A stretch of 64,000 bases of DNA from Candidatus Levyibacteriota bacterium (lineage in GTDB: Bacteria > Patescibacteriota > Microgenomatia > Levybacterales > UBA12049), in the NCBI GenBank assembly GCA_016432345.1, contig CP066685.1, forward strand, positions 496,236 through 560,235, in the 5' to 3' direction. Numbering within the stretch: the stretch's first letter is position 1; every line of letters starts with the position of its first letter. A program made the position numbers and the translations under genes. Under the pieces are notes generated by a model that worked only from the letters and a program-made list of their open reading frames with translations, had not been told where the DNA came from and made no database searches. This document shows positions 9,937 to 64,000 of the stretch, piece after piece.

Positions 9937-11609
9937 CGGCAAGACTTCGTTTTACATTTATCTTTATTATTTTTTGCTTCTTTGGTATCACATCAAGGCT
10001 TTTTTACTGGCAGGTTGTAAAAGCAGAAGATCTGTCTAGGCTTGGCCAATCTCAATATGATACTTTTATAAAACTTACACCGAAAAGAGGAGAAATAAAA
10101 ACATCAGATAGATTTTCTCTTGTGGCAAATAAAGTTTCGTTTCTTGTTTTTGCCAATCCAAAAGAGATTAAAGATAAAAAAAAGACTGCTGATACACTCT
10201 CGTCAATTTTACATACGGATATAGCATCAGTTAGTGGATTTTTGTCGCTTGACCGTTTTTGGGTGCCAATAAAATCGGGTGTTGATAACGCTACGAAACA
10301 AACAATAGAGCAAGCAAAAGTTGATGGCGTTGGGTTTGAACAGCAGTCAATACGATTTTACCCGGAAGGGTCAATGTCGGCTCATCTAACAGGTTTTGTG
10401 GGTGAAGATGATGGTGGATTTAAGGGATATTTTGGATTGGAAGGATATTACGATAGGCAGTTGCGCGGAAAGGCGGGAATTGCGGTGCAAATAAAAGATG
10501 CACTGGGAAGGCCAATTCTTTCCAAAATGAATGACAAAACAGGAGTAATAGACGGAAGGAATTTGGTGTTGAGCATTGATAGAGTTGTGCAGTTTACGGC
10601 AGAAAAGCGATTAAAAGATGGCGTTGAAAAATATCAGGCAGCTGGCGGCATGGTTGGTATTATGGATCCAAAGACGGGAAATATTTTAGCAATGGTTTCT
10701 TATCCATCTTTTGATCAACAGGAATTTTGGAAGTTTGATGAAGGTTTATATAAAAACCCTTTTATCTCTAATTTATATGAGCCTGGGTCAACATTTAAGT
10801 CTATGGTTATGGCTGCAGGTATTGACAGTAGCGTTGTAAAACCAGAGACAAAATGTCCAATTTGCGCAAAATCTATTTCTATTGGCGGCTATGAAATAAG
10901 GACATGGAATGATAGATATTATCCTAATTCAACAATGGTAGATGTTATTAAGCATTCAGATAACATCGGTATGGTGTATGTAGGAAGTCAGCTGGGGATA
11001 AATAGACTCCTTTCGTATTTACATAAGTTTGGTATTGGCGCACAAACGGGTATTGATTTACAAGGAGAGGTTGCCCAGGAGTTGCGGGGTGCAGATAGAT
11101 GGTATCCGCTTGATGCTGCGACACTAACATTTGGCCAGGGGATTTCGGTAACACCAATACAGCTTTTAGATGCTTTTTCAGCAATTGCCAACGATGGAAA
11201 ACGAATGGAGCCGCATGTGGTGGCAAAAATTGAAACACCAGATGATCAGACTATCTTAATACCTCCTAAAGTCTTGGAGCAGCCAATTTCTCCAACAACC
11301 GCAAAAGTAATGACCGAGATTTTAGTAAATGCTGTGAGTAATGGCGAGGCGAAATGGGCAAAACCAAAGGGATATAGAATAGCAGGTAAAACTGGTACAG
11401 CACAGATTCCAATTGCAGGACATTATGATCCAAATAAAACAATCGCCTCATTTATTGGTTTTGCGCCAGCAGACAACCCAAAATTTGCCATGCTTGTTAT
11501 TGTTGACCGACCAACTACATCAATTTATGGCTCGGAAACCGCAGCGCCTATATTTTTTGATATCGCAAAAGATCTTTTAACCTACTACAGCATTTCTCCT
11601 ACGGAGTAG
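9933..11609 (+). CDS. ftsI: Class B penicillin-binding protein / peptidoglycan D,D-transpeptidase FtsI
   Basis: It has an N-terminal TM helix and the transpeptidase motifs STFK, SDN (HSDNIG) and KTGTA. Confidence 0.9.
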   Translation: MTARLRFTFIFIIFCFFGITSRLFYWQVVKAEDLSRLGQSQYDTFIKLTPKRGEIKTSDRFSLVANKVSFLVFANPKEIKDKKKTADTLSSILHTDIASVSGFLSLDRFWVPIKSGVDNATKQTIEQAKVDGVGFEQQSIRFYPEGSMSAHLTGFVGEDDGGFKGYFGLEGYYDRQLRGKAGIAVQIKDALGRPILSKMNDKTGVIDGRNLVLSIDRVVQFTAEKRLKDGVEKYQAAGGMVGIMDPKTGNILAMVSYPSFDQQEFWKFDEGLYKNPFISNLYEPGSTFKSMVMAAGIDSSVVKPETKCPICAKSISIGGYEIRTWNDRYYPNSTMVDVIKHSDNIGMVYVGSQLGINRLLSYLHKFGIGAQTGIDLQGEVAQELRGADRWYPLDAATLTFGQGISVTPIQLLDAFSAIANDGKRMEPHVVAKIETPDDQTILIPPKVLEQPISPTTAKVMTEILVNAVSNGEAKWAKPKGYRIAGKTGTAQIPIAGHYDPNKTIASFIGFAPADNPKFAMLVIVDRPTTSIYGSETAAPIFFDIAKDLLTYYSISPTE

Positions 11610-26797: not shown

Positions 26798-27907
26798 ATG
26801 AAAATTCTTATTACAGGAGGAGGTCACTTTTCGCCAGCAATGGCAGTAATTGAGTCGTTGCCAAAAGGCATAAGCGTATTGATGGTGGGTCGAAAGTACT
26901 CATTTGAAGGCGACAACGCGCTATCTATTGAGTATATAGTATGTCAAGAAAGAGGTATTCCATTTATTGCATTATCAACCGGAAGATTACAACGTAAGTT
27001 TACAAAATATACAATTTCCTCTCTTTTGAAAATTCCATTTGGATTTTTTAAAGCACAAAAAATAATGCGTGATTTTAAGCCAGATGTGGTGTTGTCGTTT
27101 GGCGGATATATTTCGCTGCCAGTTGTTTTGGCAGCATATGCGTTTAGGACTCCTATTGTGGTGCATGAACAAACGCTTGAAGCAGGAATGGCAAATAAAA
27201 TTGCATCGTATTTTACGAAAAAAGTTTGTATTTCATGGGAATCATCAAGAAAGTTTTTTCCGAAAAAGAAAGTTGTATTAACGGGAAACCCGATTAGAAG
27301 ATTTAAGATTAAAGATTTAAGATTAAAGATTAAAGATGACGAGAAATTGCCGATTATTTATGTAACTGGGGGGAGTTCGGGGTCGCATGCGATTAACCTG
27401 TTGGTTGAAGGATGTATTGAAGGGCTTTTGGAAAATTTCATTGTATTTCATCAAACAGGCGATGCAAAAGAATTTAATGATTTTGAAAGACTTAATACAT
27501 TTAAAAAAACTTTAAAAAGCTCGTTGCAGAAGCGGTATATTTTAGAAAAATTTGTGCCAATGCAGAATGTTGGAGAGGTAATTAATCGAGCGGATCTAAT
27601 TATATCAAGATCGGGAATCAACACAATAACAGAGCTGTTATTTTTTGGTAAACCTGCAATACTTATTCCTATAACATTTTCTCAAAGAAACGAGCAGTTG
27701 AAAAATGCTACTTTTTTGCAAGAACACGGCTTGGCAAAAGTACTGGAACAAGAGACGACAACAAGCGAAACGCTTTATCAGGAAATTTTAGAGATGCTAA
27801 AGCAGAAAAACGAATATATGAAATCCGCAAAAGAGGCAAAAAAGCTTGTTATTCCAGATGCTCGAGAAAGAATACTTGCTGTACTGCAGCAAGTTGTGAA
27901 AAAATAG
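26798..27907 (+). CDS. murG: UDP-GlcNAc:lipid I GlcNAc transferase MurG
   Basis: It is a GT28 GT-B enzyme with ITGGGHFSPA, VHEQTLEAGMANK, LTGNPIR and VTGGSSGSHAIN. It contains the period-7 cassette at 27301-27335. Confidence 0.9.
   Translation: MKILITGGGHFSPAMAVIESLPKGISVLMVGRKYSFEGDNALSIEYIVCQERGIPFIALSTGRLQRKFTKYTISSLLKIPFGFFKAQKIMRDFKPDVVLSFGGYISLPVVLAAYAFRTPIVVHEQTLEAGMANKIASYFTKKVCISWESSRKFFPKKKVVLTGNPIRRFKIKDLRLKIKDDEKLPIIYVTGGSSGSHAINLLVEGCIEGLLENFIVFHQTGDAKEFNDFERLNTFKKTLKSSLQKRYILEKFVPMQNVGEVINRADLIISRSGINTITELLFFGKPAILIPITFSQRNEQLKNATFLQEHGLAKVLEQETTTSETLYQEILEMLKQKNEYMKSAKEAKKLVIPDARERILAVLQQVVKK
27301..27335 (+). repeat. Period-7 array (ATTTAAG ATTAAAG ATTTAAG ATTAAAG ATTAAAG), 35 nt, in frame in murG
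   Basis: There are five units in two variants. It encodes FKIKDLRLKIKD in the interdomain linker just before IIYVTGGSSG. Confidence 0.93.
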
Positions 27908-33767: not shown

Positions 33768-36581
33768 ATGTTAAAACCAGTCACCTCGCAAGTTGATTTT
33801 CCCAAACTCGAGGAAGAAATTATACAGTTTTGGAAAATCAATAAAATTTTTGAAAAATCAGTTGCCAAAGAAGCGCCAAAAGGTAATTGGACATTTTTAG
33901 ATGGGCCGCCTTTTATTACAGGGCTTCCTCATTATGGTAGTTTGCTTTCTAGTATTCCCAAAGATTTATTTCCCCGTTTTAAAACCATGCAGGGGTATAG
34001 GGTTAGACGTGTTTGGGGTTGGGATTGTCATGGTCTTCCGGCGGAAAATAAAGTGGAAAACAAATTGAGTATTACCCGCAAAAAAGATATTGAAGAAAAA
34101 ATAGGAGTTAAAAAATTTATTGACGAATGTAAATTGTATGTTAAGGATGTGTCTTCGGAATGGGAATGGTATGTAGACCACGTTGGCCGCTGGGTTGATT
34201 TTAAAAATGCCTACAAAACCATGGACTTACCATATATGGAGACAGTGATGTGGGTATTTAAACAAATGTACGACAAGGGTTATATTTACAAAGGTCTTCG
34301 GGTGTCGCTTTATTGCCCACATTGCTCAACGCCAATATCAAACTTTGAGGTTGCGATGGATGTTGATAATTATAAAGAGATAACTGATGCGGCAACAACA
34401 TATAAATTTGAGTTGCAAGATGAACTAAAGACGTTTATTCTTGCTTGGTCAACAACTCCCTGGAATAAAATTGTTACTCCTGCGTTGGCAGTTAATCCAA
34501 AATTGACTTATGTAAAAGTTAAGCAAGGTAACGAAAATTATATTTTAGCTAAAACAACTCTAAAAATACTTACTGGAGATTACAAAATTGTGGAAGAATT
34601 TAAAGGGGCAAAACTTGTGGGCATGCAGTATGTTCCGCATTACGATTATTATCCAATCGAAAAAGGCAAACAAGCATTTGTGATTATTCCTGGTGATTTT
34701 GTTACAGCAGAAGAAGGCACAGGAGTTGTAACAATTGCTGCTTATGGGGAAGAAGATTTAAAAGCCATGCAGGAAAATAATATCCATATTGAAATGCATC
34801 TGGACGAAGAAGGAACAATCAAACAAGATGTAGCACTTTTTGGCGGGATGTACTATCTTAAGGCGAATAAAGCCGTCAACGAAGATTTGGCAAAGAGGGG
34901 TTTAATTTATAAAGACGAGCAGTTGCCTCACAATGTTCCATTATGTTGGCGGTGTCATACTCGTTTGTATTATGGGCCGCAGAATGCCTGGTACGTGAAT
35001 GTGCAGAAATTAAAAAAAGAAATGAAGGAAACAAATGAGACTACTAATTGGTTTCCCAAACATTTTAAATATGGCCGATTTTTAAAAAGCTTAGAAGCAG
35101 CGCCAGATTGGTGTATTTCAAGAAGTCGTTATTGGGGATCGCCTGTGCCGGTATGGGAGTGTACATGCGGACAGCGGATAGTACCCGGTTCAATTAGAGA
35201 ATTAGAAGAATTCTCCGGTAAAAAAATTACAGATTTGCACAAACCCGAAATTGACGAAGTAATTATTAAATGTTTATCATGCGGCAAGAATGCAAAACGG
35301 GTCACCGAAGTTTTGGATAGCTGGATCGAAGCAGGTTCTGCGTCGTTTGCCGAACGCCATTTTCCTTTTAATAAAAGCGTAAAACTTACCGATTTTTTCC
35401 CACCCGATTTTATTGTGGAATATACAGGACAAATCCGCGCCTGGTTTTATGTGTTGCATGTGATTACAAATGCTTTGTATAAATCAAACGCCTACAAAAA
35501 TGTTGTGGTAACAGGAGTTATTTTAGGGACCGATGGCAGGAAGATGAGTAAAAATTACGGCAATTATCCAGATCCGAAAGAAATGCTGCAAAAATATGGC
35601 GGTGATGCACTGCGACTTTACTTAATGGGAAGTCCTGTGATGCATGGAGAAGATATCCTTATTTCTGAAGAACAATACAAACAACAAGTTAAAGGCACCA
35701 TACTTATTTTGTGGAATGTGTACAATTTTTTCGTATCAAATGCGATCGTTGACCAGTATCAAGTGTTAAGTATAAAGTATAAAGTATCAGAGAATATATT
35801 AGATCAATGGATCGTTTCATTGCTACAGAAGTTGATAAAAGAAATAACAGATGCTTTAGAAAAATACGATACTATTTTGGCTATAAAAGAAGCAGAAGGA
35901 TTTGTTGGTGATCTTTCGACTTGGTACATCAGGCGAAGTAGAGATAGGGTGGGAGCTGCGGTAGAAAATAGTAAAGATAAAAGGGCGTTTTATGAAACAA
36001 CATATTATGTGTTAACAACTCTTTGTAAACTTCTTGCGCCCATTATGCCATTTATTACAGAAGAGATGTATAAAAATTTAACAGGGGAGGAATCGGTTCA
36101 TTTATCGGATTGGCCGCGAACAGATCAAAGATTAAAGATCAAAGATCAAAGAATAGAAATCGAAATGGAGCAAGGTATACAACTTGCGTCAAAAGTGCAT
36201 GCTTTACGAAAACAGACAAATATCAAAGTTCGTATCCCTCTTAGAAAATTATCATACAAAGGACCAGAGGAACTTATAAAAGAAGTAAAGAAGGTTGTTT
36301 TGGATGAGGTGAATGTATACGAATTAGTTTATGCGGGCAAGAGTGATAATTATGAAGTTTCTGGTGATACAAGTCAAAAAAATCAGGATATCGAAGCAGG
36401 AAAAGCGCGGGATATTATTCGAAGTATTCAAGAAGAGCGAAAAAAACTTGGCACCAGCCTTGATGAATATGTTGATGTTGTTATCGAATCCTGGCCAAAA
36501 GAATTTGAAAATACAATCAAAAAGAAAGCGCTAGTTAAAACGCTTATTAAAGGTAATCAATTTAACGTTGTTAGAATATGA
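33768..36581 (+). CDS. ileS: Isoleucine--tRNA ligase (type 2, eukaryote/archaeal-like)
   Basis: The sequence shows GPPFITGLPHYG (HIGH variant), KMSKNYGN (KMSKS), a CP1 editing domain and WCISRSRYWG. It contains period-7 cassettes at 35755-35789 and 36123-36157. Confidence 0.95.
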   Translation: MLKPVTSQVDFPKLEEEIIQFWKINKIFEKSVAKEAPKGNWTFLDGPPFITGLPHYGSLLSSIPKDLFPRFKTMQGYRVRRVWGWDCHGLPAENKVENKLSITRKKDIEEKIGVKKFIDECKLYVKDVSSEWEWYVDHVGRWVDFKNAYKTMDLPYMETVMWVFKQMYDKGYIYKGLRVSLYCPHCSTPISNFEVAMDVDNYKEITDAATTYKFELQDELKTFILAWSTTPWNKIVTPALAVNPKLTYVKVKQGNENYILAKTTLKILTGDYKIVEEFKGAKLVGMQYVPHYDYYPIEKGKQAFVIIPGDFVTAEEGTGVVTIAAYGEEDLKAMQENNIHIEMHLDEEGTIKQDVALFGGMYYLKANKAVNEDLAKRGLIYKDEQLPHNVPLCWRCHTRLYYGPQNAWYVNVQKLKKEMKETNETTNWFPKHFKYGRFLKSLEAAPDWCISRSRYWGSPVPVWECTCGQRIVPGSIRELEEFSGKKITDLHKPEIDEVIIKCLSCGKNAKRVTEVLDSWIEAGSASFAERHFPFNKSVKLTDFFPPDFIVEYTGQIRAWFYVLHVITNALYKSNAYKNVVVTGVILGTDGRKMSKNYGNYPDPKEMLQKYGGDALRLYLMGSPVMHGEDILISEEQYKQQVKGTILILWNVYNFFVSNAIVDQYQVLSIKYKVSENILDQWIVSLLQKLIKEITDALEKYDTILAIKEAEGFVGDLSTWYIRRSRDRVGAAVENSKDKRAFYETTYYVLTTLCKLLAPIMPFITEEMYKNLTGEESVHLSDWPRTDQRLKIKDQRIEIEMEQGIQLASKVHALRKQTNIKVRIPLRKLSYKGPEELIKEVKKVVLDEVNVYELVYAGKSDNYEVSGDTSQKNQDIEAGKARDIIRSIQEERKKLGTSLDEYVDVVIESWPKEFENTIKKKALVKTLIKGNQFNVVRI
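33838..33872. repeat. 35-bp direct repeat, copy 2 (native ileS codons 24-35, WKINKIFEKSVAKE)
   Basis: It is identical to 32773-32807. It lies in the conserved N-terminal region of IleRS, upstream of the PPFITGLPHYG (HIGH-type) motif. Confidence 0.95.
35755..35789 (+). repeat. Degenerate period-7 array (AGTATCA AGTGTTA AGTATAA AGTATAA AGTATCA), 35 nt, in ileS
   Basis: It has five units of consensus AGTRTYA. It encodes QYQVLSIKYKVS. Confidence 0.8.
36123..36157 (+). repeat. Period-7 array (GATCAAA GATTAAA GATCAAA GATCAAA GAATAGA), about 35 nt, in ileS
   Basis: It has four clear units and one degenerate unit. It encodes DQRLKIKDQRI and shares AGATTAAAGAT(T/C)AAAGAT (17/18 nt, same reading frame, peptide RLKIKD) with the murG array. 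Confidence 0.88.
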
Positions 36582-45215: not shown

Positions 45216-48200
45216 TTATAACATTTTCCTCATTTTAAGATAAGATAATCCTGTTGCTCCAAATAACAAAACCCCAGCAATCGGCAAAAAATTTATTTTA
45301 TTTTTTTCTTGCAGAGTTGGTTTATCTGCAGATTTGGATTCGACAGTTTGCTGATCTAATTTTGATTCTTTTTTGAGTTCTTCTTTTGGTTTTGGTTCTA
45401 TTTTTGCTCCCAGCACATTTTCTTTAAAGCCCGCTGCCGCGCCTTGTTCGGAAAATCCAATTGGCGTAGCGGCAATTTCGTTGGAGTAATCTCCTGGGGT
45501 ACATCCATTGCCCGCCCGTACTCTAAAATAATATGTCTGTCCGCCGGAGAGATTTTCTACCACAAAATTGGTTGTTCCTTTTCCTCCAATGTTGGGGTTG
45601 CCATACTGCAATTTTCCAGGCTCTGTTCCATAGGCAATAAGGTAATACGAAATTGGCCCCGCCCCTTCTTTCCATGATAGTGCGACGGTGTTGATGCCGG
45701 CAAAAGTGGAAGTGAGGGTAGGCGCGCTTTGTGGCTTTTCGTCGTTGCAAGTTGCAGCAGAGGTGGAGTTTGAAGATGTAGAAGATGAGGAACTAGAACT
45801 TGAAGCAGTTACTGTCGGTGTTGGTGTCGGAGTCGGAGTTGGAGTAGGTGTTGGTGTGGGAGTGAGCGTTGGGTCGCTGGCAAGGGTAATACTTCGTTCG
45901 TCGGTTACCTGCTCGGGCGAGCCGCGGGAAATAAGGCGGTAGTAGTAGGTTTTTCCAGGCAGCAAATCGGTGATTGTTACAGAATGGTTTTTTGTTTTTG
46001 TTGGTTTTTCGTCGGTTCCATTGTCGTATCCATATTTAGTTCCAGAGCCTTTGACTTTTTTTGACTGGCTGCCAAAAACAACGCGACTATACGATGGTCT
46101 ATCGGTTGTCCAGGTAACAGTAAAAGAAGTCGCGGTATTTTCGGCAACGGTTATTGACGTATCGTCAATTTTTGGGGCGATTTCATATTCTTCTGTGAGC
46201 GTGTCGCTTAGATTACCTGCAGTATCTTTTGCTACCGTTTTGAGTGTTACACTGCTGCCGTCAATTATAATTGGCGCAACGTAGATGAGTCTGGCGCTGG
46301 AGGTGGAAGGATCTGTTCCATCGAGGGTATAAAAAATGGTAGGTTTATTAGGTGCATCAAGACTTGTAATTTCAATTGATCGTGGTTTTAGATATTTATC
46401 TCCTGGAATGTCCACTGTAGGTTTGGTTGGAGGAATGCCATCTGTTGGAGTGGTAGTTTGTTGGTTATTCCATTTGTCTGATGAGATATCTTTAATGCCA
46501 GTTCCTGTTCCATTTCCTTTGAGGGTAACAATCGGTGTTTTTCCTGCGTCATTTGGTTCTGTTGTTTCTTCAATAGTTATTGTAACTTTGTTTTTCTCAT
46601 TGCCATCTCGTTTTGCGGTAACAACTTTGTATCCTTCAACATTAAAATCAGAATTATTGCTTGATTCATTTACTGTGTTCGCGTTTACATCCCGTACAAA
46701 AGTTACCTCAATTTTATCTATTTTGCCGTTGTTATTGGTATCAAGGGTTTTGGTGCTTTTTATTTGCGGTGGTGTGGTATCAGTTGGTGTTGTATCGTTG
46801 CTTTCGCCATTTTGTTTATATCCCAGAGAAAACGTCGCCGGCTCATCATTTTTTGTTTGGCTCGAAATTTTGTTTACAGTTGCGCTGCCAGTTGCTGTAT
46901 GTCGATACGTTTCAAGCTTAAATTGGTTTATGACAGCGCTTGTTGTTGCAACAGTAATGCTATATGTGTCGTTATTTGGTTTAGGTATTAGCAGCATTTT
47001 ATAGTCTGGACTTGTAGTTTCGCTTATTGGATCTTTAATGCCATGCTCTAGATAATAGATAGCGTTTGGTATATCGGTATAGGTGGTTGTGCCATTACTG
47101 CCTGCTTTTTGACCACTGCTATTTGTTAGATATATGTCAACATCTGGGTCTACAACAACTATTAGATACGAAAGATTCGTATTAGAAGGGATAAATCGTC
47201 TCATGGAAAGAAAAGTATCGTTGTATGAGGCTAAAGTTGTCCTCTCATCGTAAAAAGGATCGTTAATATCAAAAGTTGTTCCATTGATTCCCTTGGCAAC
47301 AATAAAATGTCCTGGTTCTTCAAGTATTACTGGATTATTACTATCTAATTGGTTTTTTAATTTAGTTTTGTCATTGTCGCCCCACACAAATTCTAAGGCA
47401 TCAAAATCAGTGATATTATTTACTGTTTTTGCAAGTTTGGATAAGTCGGCTATGGCTGCCCAATTTACTTTGCCTCGTATATAGCCACCATCGCCACCTT
47501 CATAATTTTTTAACCAAAGATTTAGAGTATCTGGTTGGAGATCAGATCCATCTGGCAATTTTTTAATACCATAGTAATTAAGTATCATTGCAGCCGATGT
47601 CATAGCACATCCCCAGCGATTGATTGTTGTTGCTTCTCCAGTTTTTGCCCAATCGGTTGCAGTGTCATATTCTAATCCCTGCCACGGCTCCGAAGTTTGC
47701 TTAAGTAGCGGAACATCGAGCGGAGAATCGATGTTCGTAACAACAATGTTATCAAACCAGACTTCTGAATCTGGATCTGCGCCAACGCTTGCTTGAAGAC
47801 CAATTGTTCCACCATCAAAATAAGGCGAAGAATCCTCCAATTTCCAGATTTCATCATTGTTAATAAATAATTTAATTACATTTTTAGAAAATTCTATTTT
47901 AAAATGGTATGTTTGGTTATCCTGAAAAGAATATGATTTTTGTTCTACTCGATAGTAACTTCCTATAACTTTTTGAAAGTATATAGTTGATCCGTAAGTC
48001 ATAAAGTCATACCAATTAGAGGAGTCTAAATACTTAAATAGGATGTTTCTATTAGCTATAGCTGTGTTTTTATATTCCATATCAAAGCTGTACGAGTATC
48101 CAATAAAGCCAGAAAGATCAAAATTGTTTGGAATAATTTCAGTTGTGCAACTTGGACCGTTTATTCTAATACCAGCCTTGCCATTTTCTATATTCCAAGT

Positions 48201-51041: not shown

Positions 51042-51992
51042 ATGAAGATAAGTTTTATTTCGACTGTTTACAATGAGGAGAAGACGATTGGATGGATGCT
51101 AGAGAGTTTGGCAAAACAGACGAGGATGCCAGACGAGATGATTATTGTAGATGGAGATTCAACCGACAGTACGCTGTCGGTAATTTTCAATTTTCAATTT
51201 TCAATTTTCAATCAAAACACAAAAAATAAATTTTCAAAAATAAAAATACTTACAAAAAAAGGGAATCGGGCGGTGGGACGAAATGAGGCGATAAGAAATG
51301 CGACAGGCGATATTATTGTATGTTCGGATGCGGGATGCCAGTTGGATAAGGATTGGGTGAAGAATATTGTGAAGCCGTTTGAAAATCCAAAAGTAGATGT
51401 TGTCGCAGGGTACTATGCAGCAAAGCCACAATCGATCTTTCAAAAATGCCTGGTGCCATATGTGCTTGTTATGCCAGATAAGATTGACCCTAAAAATTTT
51501 CTTCCGGCATCCCGCACAATGGCATTTAGAAAATCTATTTGGGAAAAAGTTGGTGGGTTTCCAGAAAGATACTCGCATAACGAAGATTATGTTTTTGCAA
51601 AGAAGTTAAAGCACATTGGAGTAAATATCGTTTTTGCCAAAGATGCCATTGTTTACTGGATGCCTCGAAAGAATCTAAAGCAAGCATTCATTATGTTTTT
51701 CCGCTTTGCCTTTGGCGACGCAGAAGCTCGTATTTTTCGCCCAAAAGTTTTTTTGATTTTCGTTCGTTATTTATTTGTATTTTTTCTCATTTTTTTACTT
51801 ATTGGTTTTCAACTATACGCTATACGCTATACGCTATACGCTATGTTTTTATTGTACGTGACGTGGTCTGTTTGGAAGAACTACAAATACGTTGCAGACT
51901 GGCGCGCAATCGTAATTTTGCCTATACTACAAATAACTGCTGATATTGCAGTAATTTTGGGAACGATATGGGGTATACAACACAGGCAATAA
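51042..51992 (+). CDS. Glycosyltransferase family 2 with C-terminal TM region
   Basis: The sequence shows ISFISTVYNEE, IIVDGDSTDST, GRNEAIRNA and CSDAG, with C-terminal hydrophobic helices. It carries cassettes at 51183-51213 and 51813-51844. Confidence 0.85.
   Translation: MKISFISTVYNEEKTIGWMLESLAKQTRMPDEMIIVDGDSTDSTLSVIFNFQFSIFNQNTKNKFSKIKILTKKGNRAVGRNEAIRNATGDIIVCSDAGCQLDKDWVKNIVKPFENPKVDVVAGYYAAKPQSIFQKCLVPYVLVMPDKIDPKNFLPASRTMAFRKSIWEKVGGFPERYSHNEDYVFAKKLKHIGVNIVFAKDAIVYWMPRKNLKQAFIMFFRFAFGDAEARIFRPKVFLIFVRYLFVFFLIFLLIGFQLYAIRYTLYAMFLLYVTWSVWKNYKYVADWRAIVILPILQITADIAVILGTIWGIQHRQ
51183..51213 (+). repeat. Perfect heptanucleotide array (AATTTTC)x4.4 in a GT2 gene
   Basis: Period-7 identity holds from 51183 to 51213. 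It encodes IFNFQFSIFN just after the DGDSTDST motif. Confidence 0.95.
51813..51844 (+). repeat. Perfect heptanucleotide array (CTATACG)x4.6 in the same GT2 gene
   Basis: Period-7 identity holds from 51813 to 51844. It encodes LYAIRYTLYAM within the C-terminal hydrophobic region. Confidence 0.95.
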
Positions 51993-62954: not shown

Positions 62955-62970
<16 letters not shown>

Positions 62971-64000
62971 ACTTTTTTGAAATCCTCCAGCGTTTTTTTT
63001 AAAAGTTTAGTTGTTTCTTCGTTAATTTTATTTCCTGTGCTTAGTTCTTCCAGTACTTTTGCTTTGTGTGTTTTTGTGTATTCATGAAGTTCTTTTTCGA
63101 ATCTTTGCACCTGTTCAACTGGCACATCGTCCAAAAAGCCATTACTTACAGCCCAAAGACTTAATACTTCTAAACTTTCTGGAAGTGGCTGGTATTGCGG
63201 CTGTTTTAAAATTTCAGTCATCCGTTTACCTTTTTCCAGTTGTTTTTGAGTGGCGGCATCTAATTCACTGCCAAATTGAGCAAAGGCTGCTAATTCTCGG
63301 TATTGAGCTAGTTCGAGACGCATTTTTCCAGAAACAGATTTCATGGTGCCAGATTGAGCGGCCCCGCCGACCCGAGAAACAGAATTACCAACATTAATAG
63401 CAGGTCGAATACCAATATTAAATAAATCTCCCTGCAAAAAAATCTGCCCGTCGGTAATGGAAATAACATTGGTTGGGATGTAAGCTGAAATATCACCAGC
63501 CTGGGTTTCGATAATGGGAAGAGCGGTAATCGAACCATCGCCGTTTTTTTTGTTTAATCTTACAGCGCGTTCAAGTAATCTACTATGCAAGTAAAAAATA
63601 TCACCAGGATAAGCCTCGCGGCCAGCGGGACGACGTAGCACTAAAGACAATTGACGATATGCCCAGGCGTGTTTGGTAAGATCGTCATAGACCACTAGCA
63701 CATCTTCGCCTTTTTCCATAAAGTATTCGGCTATAGCTGCGCCAGCATAAGGAGCTAAGTATTGCAAAGCCGCCGGATCAGGCGCATTGGCCGCCACAAT
63801 TATAGTGTATGAATCTGCGTTTTCTTCTTTGAGTCTGTTGATAATTTGGGCAACAGTTGATTGCTTTTGACCAATTGCCACATAGACGCAGATAACACCT
63901 TTGGTGCGTGGAGCGTGGCTCGTGGATTTTTCGTGGGTAGATCGTTGATTAATAATAGTGTCAATGGCAATAGCTGTTTTGCCCAAACCTCGATCTCCGA
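62955..64000 (-). CDS. atpA: F1 ATP synthase alpha subunit, 5' end beyond the window
   Basis: The reading frame is open to nt 64000. The P-loop GDRGLGKT lies at the edge, the Leu of GLGK being the TTG mis-called as a start in the ORF track. It contains a 12-aa insert directly after the P-loop helix (63902-63936). Confidence 0.95.
63902..63936 (-). repeat. Degenerate GC-rich period-7 segment (plus strand TGGTGCG TGGAGCG TGGCTCG TGGATTT TTCGTGG) in atpA
   Basis: There are three clear TGGNNCG units plus two decayed units. It encodes most of a 12-aa (36-nt) insert, [12 protein letters not shown], relative to E. coli and B. subtilis alpha subunits (INQ-x5-ICIYV). It is locally much more GC-rich than its flanks. 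Confidence 0.7.

Follow-up and report, generated by a model that had tools for sequence, protein, structure and literature searches.

Three tandem heptamers in a Levybacteria ATP synthase alpha-subunit loop, a probable relic of an in-frame heptanucleotide expansion

How does a tandem repeat with a 7-nt unit, which is not divisible by three, come to lie in frame within an essential gene? The question is raised by atpA, which encodes the alpha subunit of the F1 ATP synthase, in a 64,000-nt stretch of a Candidatus Levyibacteriota genome (Microgenomates, Candidate Phyla Radiation or CPR; assembly GCA_016432345.1, contig CP066685.1, positions 496,236-560,235 of the forward strand), the whole of which is called the window here. 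The gene occupies positions 62955-64000 on the minus strand and runs past the window end, its C-terminal 347 codons lying inside. In the loop that follows the P-loop helix, it carries three tandem heptamers, CCACGAG CCACGCT CCACGCA, at 63905-63925 (minus strand), forming a 21-nt block with the consensus CCACGNN. We argue that this block is probably the stabilised relic, or fossil, of a three-unit heptanucleotide tandem expansion that occurred in frame in a poorly constrained loop.

The extended loop and its three heptamers

The loop segment spans R186-I203, 18 codons at 63891-63944 (minus strand) between IINQ and CVYVAIGQK, and its sense DNA reads CGA TCT ACC CAC GAA AAA TCC ACG AGC CAC GCT CCA CGC ACC AAA GGT GTT ATC. 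The flanking motifs are intact, the loop being placed between the P-loop helix and the (V/I)C(I/V)YVAIGQK strand. An original prediction, made from the sequence of the window, had proposed a 12-residue insertion here relative to the E. coli and B. subtilis alpha subunits, and each HMMER alignment against solved alpha subunits (hybrid F1 with ancestral core domains, 6q45, 2qe7) confirms it with one 12-residue gap at the loop. The same prediction had described a CCACGNN heptamer periodicity in the insert, of which the three exact tandem heptamers are the substance.

The 12 extra residues are of two ages. In Fusobacteria, Chloroflexota, Uhrbacteria and other genomes compared, the loop has 6 residues (KGQDVK type), while in Levybacteria it typically has 11, such that 5 of the 12 residues gained over Bacillus-type alpha subunits belong to an older, clade-wide extension and 7 are lineage-specific. 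Measured from NQ to AIGQK, the spacer of the 117 closest AtpA relatives is 8-23 residues long with a mode of 15 (equal to loops of 4-19 residues on the 18-residue count), against 22 in the window; the window loop thus exceeds the clade mode of 11 by 7 residues, or 21 nt. Excising the block leaves CGA TCT ACC CAC GAA AAA TCC AAA GGT GTT ATC, encoding the 11-residue RSTHEKSKGVI, which is colinear, residue for residue, with the loops RTTHKKRKRVI and KSYHKSLKPVI of two relatives (P0046 and L007). In the nearest relatives, which share 82-88% of the window's 347 residues, the loop is 4-15 residues long and unrelated in sequence, and the 21 nt are therefore derived in this lineage. In line with this, the alignment of AtpA to its relatives that the original prediction had called for showed an insert that the relatives do not share and a protein longer than the clade consensus.

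Across the clade, both the length and the sequence of the loop are hypervariable, K-x-V-I being its sole conserved motif, and most relatives' loops are A-rich, lysine-rich and 15-48% GC. The site is known to tolerate insertions, since bovine alpha carries 14 residues there (KRFNDGTDEKKKLY) against 6 in Bacillus, a gain of 8.

Within the block, the three copies of the 7-nt unit lie inside the open reading frame (ORF) and agree at 5 of 7 positions. They fall across codons S192-T199 (TCC ACG AGC CAC GCT CCA CGC ACC), adding approximately STSHAPR, and CCACGNN contains no TAA, TAG or TGA in any phase. Directly 3' of the block, a heptamer-length stretch read from the sequence, CCAAAGG (63898-63904, minus strand), repeats the opening CCA, so that a direct repeat of 3 nt (microhomology) borders the insertion, which measures 21 nt, or 24 nt with the flanking CCA included. 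On the other side, a 4-nt spacer, AAAT, parts the block from a solitary CCACGAA (63930-63936, minus strand; codons T-H-E). The start of this heptamer is 11 nt from that of the first inserted copy, which it matches at 6 of 7 positions with a lag-11 run of 6, making it a possible seed of the block.

The composition of the segment is unusual, as had been predicted from its GC richness: GC content is 71% in the 21-nt block, 60% over 63902-63936 and 54% in the 54-nt loop, against 41-42% in the rest of atpA and 37% in the window, where 0.45% of all 21-mers are equally GC-rich. An AlphaFold2 monomer model built with 61 homologues (mean predicted local distance difference test score, pLDDT, 76.5) places the P-loop helix at residues 174-183 and a short helix at 186-190; residues 192-198 coincide exactly with the inserted codons and are modelled as coil with pLDDT below 50. 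The predicted RNA fold of 63870-63970 is unremarkable (z = -0.25).

The NCBI genome and four independent Logan assemblies from different runs (L001, L002, L003 and L005) agree in every base of the loop, so the block is no artefact of assembly. At 90% identity, the protein cluster of this AtpA has one member, with no variant protein.

Origin of the atpA block

Is the periodicity more than chance? The pattern CCACGNNCCACGNNCCACG is unique in the window, being found only at the atpA block, and 0.17 matches with up to three mismatches are expected by chance. Four of the 25 plus-strand CGTGG pentamers of the 64-kb window lie within 26 nt at this loop. When the loop is shuffled with its composition preserved and the insertion taken as the prior region, a tandem run of three heptamers sharing 5 or more invariant columns out of 7 appears with p = 6e-4 for the 54-nt loop and p = 1.3e-3 for its 42-nt C-rich core. 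Two different window-wide scans for period 7 yield the same eight loci, namely seven arrays and atpA. The atpA periodicity becomes significant because the block coincides exactly with the lineage-specific 21 nt. Moreover, the three copies are read in three codon phases (TCC ACG, AGC CAC G and CT CCA CGC); selection on the peptide STSHAPR therefore cannot make the DNA repeat, and the repeat, if real, has a mutational origin.

A second heptamer repeat occurs in the same loop of one relative, L102 (protein P0004), whose AtpA is 84% identical over the window's 347 residues. Its loop DNA, at about 10550-10600 of that locus, contains CC AAAGATC AAAGATC AAAA, or 2.6 copies, with a lag-7 run of 11 (shuffles give p = 5e-6 for lag 7 itself and p = 1.8e-4 when any lag of 4-12 is allowed). 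Among the roughly 46 lineages with DNA, the window and L102 are the only ones with a lag-7 signal in the atpA loop. An origin by a heptamer process is favoured because L102 has this independent repeat in the same loop, because the window and the clade show arrays specific to period 7, and because a GT2 glycosyltransferase array at 51182 shows the same three-unit, seven-residue step at a live array. Of the explanations considered, a link with the genome's heptamer process is the best for the atpA insert.

Such an origin could have proceeded as follows. In the recent ancestry of this Levybacteria species, three CCACGNN units (21 nt) would have been gained in one frame-preserving change, at a site that was already extended and poorly constrained, the loop after the AtpA P-loop helix. 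The change may have been a slipped-strand or microhomology-mediated replication error, the block being bounded by the CCA direct repeat. At 3 x 7 = 21 nt, it would represent the smallest heptamer expansion tolerable to selection, the minimal viable step, because only multiples of three units survive in an essential gene. The seven residues would have landed in a flexible, unconstrained part of the loop, and substitution would later have altered positions 6-7 of the unit (against the consensus CCACGCA, a two-base codon change plus a synonymous one), making the copies imperfect, so that the tract would no longer be slippery and would now be fixed. Most likely, the insert is without function of its own, a tolerated loop extension.

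Several observations weigh against this origin. A signal as weak as that of atpA is expected by chance 1.2 times in one window-wide scan and 0.6 times in the other, and atpA ranks last in strength among the eight period-7 loci; taken alone, its periodicity could be the expected chance hit. Its unit, at 71% GC, is atypical against the A/T-rich arrays of the clade, and the window, the 189 loci compared and viral contigs yielded neither a perfect CCACGNN array nor a donor. No atpA allele with 0 or 6 units was found either. A single-step gain of three units from one seed copy is not predicted by simple slippage, and the nearest seed-like heptamer, CCACGAA, is not adjacent to the block but parted from it by the 4-nt spacer. 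Among relatives, the long loops of L016, L021, L024, L033, L036, L191 and L192 have no lag-7 signal, and the loop extension of L190 (KPFDSPLRGEASAQGKPVI), at 63% GC, is without period 7.

The L190 loop indicates that GC-rich loop extensions are not unique to the window genome. It also has GGCGA GGCGA GCG, with period 5, and a small CCGC-TTC-GCGG hairpin. Heptamer events thus add to the variability of the atpA loop without explaining most of it. Searches for a donor of the insert yielded none: three CCACGNN units in tandem occur, among the 189 loci, in same-species contigs only, the 21-mer is absent from viral contigs, none of the insert's 11-mers recurs in the window, and those in other loci are scattered single matches with no excess over chance. 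A variable-gap pattern scan of Joint Genome Institute (JGI) metagenome contigs for other insert lengths returned 0 matches. As a general rule, a seed plus three units adding seven residues was rejected, as the ileS arrays and the second GT2 site have the same length as array-free orthologues; it holds at the first GT2 site and at atpA.

Against the relic of a heptamer expansion stands the proposal that the block is an ordinary lineage-specific loop indel of unrelated origin, its periodicity being a coincidence in a C-rich stretch. We consider this unlikely, though it accommodates the hypervariable length and sequence of the loop across the 117 relatives, the confinement of the lag-7 signal to the window and L102, the non-periodic 63% GC loop of L190 and the window-wide chance expectation of 0.6-1.2. 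Indels in neighbouring genes relative to two relatives measure 1, 2, 6, 10 and 13 residues, with no excess of 7 in this small sample. What a coincidence accommodates poorly is the p value of about 0.001 obtained with composition preserved and the insertion region given, the exact match of the periodic block to the 21-nt excess over the clade, and the period-7-specific repeat process demonstrated in this genome, together with the independent L102 repeat in the same loop. That the extension is adaptive whatever its mutational origin, serving as a regulatory loop or making a new contact close to the top of the nucleotide-binding domain, is improbable in our judgement. In its favour, samples from no fewer than four sequencing runs carry the extension unchanged and fixed, the Levybacteria clade retains a lengthened, lysine-rich loop at this place, and mitochondrial and Paracoccus alpha subunits are extended at the same site, the mitochondrial loop of 8 additional residues perhaps being such a case. 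The extreme lability of the loop among close relatives, in sequence as well as in length (4-19 residues), points instead to low constraint, and the inserted residues form a low-confidence coil in the model; no partner or function suggests itself.

The original prediction had gone further, suggesting that the insert matches, in size and periodicity, cassettes in glycosyltransferase genes, murG and ileS. The shared period of 7 stands, and the 36 nt that are extra relative to E. coli and Bacillus approach the array lengths of 31-46 nt; the 36-nt cassette does not stand, as the lineage-specific part in atpA is 21 nt. A mobile or templated cassette family of this kind, or a live phase-variable contingency tract, is very improbable and already largely refuted. 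The arrays have no sequence in common with CCACGNN and no mutual similarity except between two GT4 paralogues; they have no terminal repeats; those of ileS and murG are not insertions; and neither the unremarkable RNA fold of the atpA region nor the absence of period 7 from most long atpA loops of relatives, including the GC-rich L190, fits a cassette. Perfect arrays coincide with contig breaks, while the atpA block is assembled through identically. As a contingency tract, it would consist of three imperfect copies, invariant across assemblies, in an essential gene where a one-unit change would be lethal. The relic of a heptamer expansion therefore remains, to us, the probable reading.

Other candidates were rejected outright. 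A translational bypass or frameshift element is at odds with a continuous ORF whose residues align as an ordinary loop. As a restriction-site or uptake motif, CCACG is neither avoided nor enriched (36 observed on both strands against about 47 expected). A two-quartet G-quadruplex on the G-rich plus strand (GG N5 GG N5 GG N5 GG) would be too weak, and the "loop insertion" in F1 described in the literature concerns the beta subunit instead.

Heptamer arrays elsewhere in the window and the clade

Period 7 stands out in the window. In Tandem Repeats Finder output and our own scans, perfect arrays of at least three copies with a period of at least 5 nt number four at period 7, against 0.0 expected from shuffles, with none in the window at periods 5, 6 and 8-15. 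The same scans recover the period-7 arrays that had been predicted in glycosyltransferase genes, murG and ileS. Across 1.2 Mb of Levybacteria loci, perfect arrays number 19 at period 7; periods 5 and 6 have 3 and 1, and periods 8-12 none, while 0.62 Mb from other phyla contain 1 perfect period-7 array. The perfect arrays of the clade measure 21-36 nt in coding sequence (mostly 27-36 nt, about 3.9-5.1 copies) and 25-51 nt in non-coding sequence.

The seven arrays of the window other than the atpA block are 31-46 nt long, have AT-rich units and all lie inside intact ORFs on the plus strand. Perfect CAAATAC x5 (365-399) encodes NTKYQIPNTKY in the interdomain linker of one GT4 glycosyltransferase, and perfect AAATACC x4.9 (1413-1446), the CAAATAC unit again, lies in the linker of the adjacent GT4 glycosyltransferase. 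In murG, imperfect GATTAAA x6.4 (27292-27337) occupies the interdomain linker. Two arrays fall within ileS: imperfect AGTATAA x4.7 (35755-35787; residues 663-674), at a hot spot common to relatives with a loop one residue above the clade mode, and imperfect AGATCAA x4.4 (36122-36152; residues 785-795), two residues above it. Finally, one GT2 glycosyltransferase gene contains perfect AATTTTC x4.4 (51182-51212) and perfect CTATACG x4.6 (51813-51844), the latter in a predicted membrane segment. CAAATAC, AATTTTC and CTATACG are stop-free in three frames, and the units capable of forming TAA are imperfect exactly at the in-frame stop positions. None of the other listed units, from the window or from relatives, exceeds 57% GC, and on the sense strand all of them are A/T-rich.

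Two side features of these genes may be noted. The two GT4 paralogues have the unit CAAATAC and the encoded peptide NTKYQIP in common, and the GT4 and MurG arrays all fall in the GT-B interdomain linker; the three glycosyltransferase genes with perfect arrays belong to a polysaccharide-synthesis cluster. Heptamers resembling the L102 unit (AGATCAA, AGATTAA and AAGATCA) recur in the ileS and murG arrays of the window and in a GT2 gene of L015, encoding KIKDQ- or KIKD-type peptides.

How the arrays relate to protein length differs between sites. At the first GT2 site (51182), the window protein is exactly 7 residues longer than five orthologues, all of which have arrays there, and at the second (51813) its length equals that of the orthologues, two of which have degenerate arrays. 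In ileS, the array loops are within 1-2 residues of normal relative to solved IleRS structures and 78 ileS relatives, and the murG array loop differs by -4 to +2 residues from solved MurG structures; since these loops have normal length, the ileS and murG arrays are not insertions. The ileS arrays lie at four conserved hot spots (window residues 216-223, 663-675, 781-797 and 825-837; relatives L103-L182) with units that differ by lineage. At the fourth, all of one subclade carries an NNNNAAT x5 array spanning the same 36 nt; L138 (TCAAAGT x5), L151 (TTTCAAT) and L146 (CAAAAAT) have it in perfect form, and in the other members it is degenerate. This sharing of sites with different units indicates that the arrays are old, fixed in place and length, and homogenised lineage by lineage.

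It is an even call whether Levybacteria have a repeat dynamic of their own, specific to heptamers, of which the atpA block would be one footprint. In it, frame-locked arrays of about 27-36 nt, placed at conserved positions in loops of essential and surface-related genes (ileS, gatB, murG, GT2 and GT4), would be rehomogenised per lineage to different units at constant length, with an occasional change of three units (7 residues). With these arrays, the block has in common a period of exactly 7, a stop-free unit and a position in a variable loop or linker; it is unlike them in measuring 21 nt, against mostly 27-36, and in its GC-rich unit. Several lineages have arrays at common sites in ileS, GT2 and gatB, against one other lineage, L102, with a heptamer repeat in the atpA loop. 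If such a dynamic exists, heptamer slippage would be a lineage-specific engine of protein-loop evolution, accompanied by simple sequence repeat (SSR) phase variation in the perfect glycosyltransferase arrays. The atpA insert itself is minor, a 7-residue extension of a loop tolerant to insertions in many lineages, and the system of heptamer arrays around it is the more interesting subject. The insert has value as a marker, indicating that a core energy-metabolism gene, too, bears in-frame scars of the 7-base repeat process, and as a clean example of three heptamers equalling seven residues. Were the wider pattern to hold, Levybacteria would offer a natural system for non-triplet microsatellites that persist in essential genes, frame-locked by selection and homogenised at constant length, as well as for repeat-driven phase variation of the surface glycans of host-dependent, uncultivated CPR bacteria. 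The clade-wide heptamer pattern may be unreported; the literature searched contained no report of heptamer or simple-sequence repeats in CPR bacteria, which is weak evidence.

The perfect glycosyltransferase arrays behave differently in assemblies from the atpA block. In every sample examined, Logan contigs start or end inside the arrays at 1413, 51182 and 51813: contigs from five samples begin inside 1413-1446, others end inside the 51182 array and others start inside the 51813 array. Through the imperfect ileS arrays and the atpA block, they pass without a break. Contig ends in perfect arrays suggest copy-number heterogeneity within populations and probable glycosyltransferase phase variation. 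The contig ends inside the perfect arrays do not lie where a simple two-allele model of k = 31 graph branching puts them, and the heterogeneity is suggested rather than proven because the break positions misfit that model. Such heterogeneity would amount to SSR phase variation of surface glycans in a CPR bacterium.

In relatives, heptamer arrays also occur in gatB, with AATCTCA x4.4-4.6 at the same site in two genomes and AAATCAA x4.3 elsewhere (L008 4352-4382, L028 4408-4439 and L025 3129-3158). Intergenic ones lie directly upstream of the atpG and atpC starts (L010 4201-4246 and 6537-6576; L042 3569-3593; L017 13951-14001), GTTATAA being present at the same place upstream of an atp start in 5.7 copies in one relative and 7.3 in another. 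From their position, these intergenic arrays could modulate atp expression. A repeat of another kind, a GTCGGA hexamer or 12-mer array of about 8 copies with 79% match (45813-45863), lies inside a minus-strand ORF of 1062 residues and is probably an ordinary triplet-compatible low-complexity coding repeat.

Known repeat systems and gene context

The closest counterpart to a coding heptamer is neuO, the O-acetyltransferase gene of an E. coli K1 prophage, which contains a heptanucleotide tract of the variable-number tandem repeat (VNTR) type with the poly-psi motif 5'-AAGACTC-3' (PMC3046976). Each RLKTQDS heptad takes three AAGACTC units, the frame is kept at multiples of three only, and the encoded stretch is disordered; with 2-93 perfect copies, this dispensable surface-modification gene switches at high frequency (PMC3046976). 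The atpA block resembles neuO in having a 7-nt unit in a coding region with three units equal to 7 residues, and differs from it in having three degenerate copies, no length variation seen and an essential housekeeping gene as its host. With 4.4-5 copies, the window's perfect glycosyltransferase arrays are closer to neuO than the atpA tract is.

SSR contingency loci of Haemophilus, Neisseria and Campylobacter (PMC11868660, PMC2651432) have the same presumed slipped-strand mispairing and units not divisible by 3; they are kept as switches, whereas at atpA only a footprint remains. Of the properties that mark contingency loci, the atpA tract has a unit not divisible by 3 and a position within an ORF, and it has neither perfect copies, nor copy-number variation in the assemblies compared, nor a dispensable gene around it. 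It is therefore filed as an SSR-derived in-frame indel in an insertion-tolerant F1 alpha loop. The extension of mitochondrial and alphaproteobacterial F1 alpha subunits is at the same site and differs in sequence, length and lineage, its origin being independent; the mitochondrial loop is conserved in its group, whereas that of Levybacteria is hypervariable. Rickettsia palindromic elements, which are mobile and inserted in frame, offer a poor match, for the atpA block has no sequence common to other loci and is neither palindromic nor structured.

Short tandemly repeated repetitive sequences (STRRs), a looser parallel, fall into few conserved unit families and are mostly intergenic. Those of heterocystous cyanobacteria are reportedly tandem heptanucleotide repeats, an account ascribed to Mazel et al. 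in 1990. Their likeness to the present case is a lineage-specific abundance of 7-nt tandem arrays, including, as the title of Vioque (1997) indicates, inside a functional gene, that for RNase P RNA. The Levybacteria arrays are unlike STRRs in having many different units, placed in frame inside protein-coding genes. The repeats in ORFs of Borg elements, likewise a looser parallel, are said to have units divisible by three, so that no frame-locking arises, and they belong to a different host and scale. Passages of the Borg report describe perfect tandem repeats that arise de novo in ORFs and add low-complexity or disordered peptide (PMC9879509).

The proteins of the window match QQG40440-QQG40498 on a contig of 762,565 bp, and the full AtpA protein (P0001) has 514 residues, with a 100% match to QQG40498.1 from Ca. 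Levyibacteriota. It comprises the Pfam domains ATP-synt_ab_N, ab and ab_C, with E = 7.5e-190 against solved alpha subunits, and its gene sits within a complete atpH-A-G-D-C operon. The P-loop codons G-L-G-K-T of the non-catalytic nucleotide site lie at 63975-63989 (minus strand), followed by the P-loop helix, model residues 174-183. Over 63975-63995, the P-loop of the window protein reads GDRGLGKT, and that of bovine and Bacillus alpha subunits GDRQTGKT; in 61 Levybacteria AtpA sequences, G168, D169, R170, L172, G173, K174 and T175 are invariant and G171 is nearly so.

At the scale of the window, GC skew is positive in all 2-kb bins to about 58 kb, the cumulative skew climbing steadily. The window thus appears to lie within a single replichore with strongly co-oriented genes. 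Past about 58 kb, where the genes turn to the minus strand, the skew drops to near zero.

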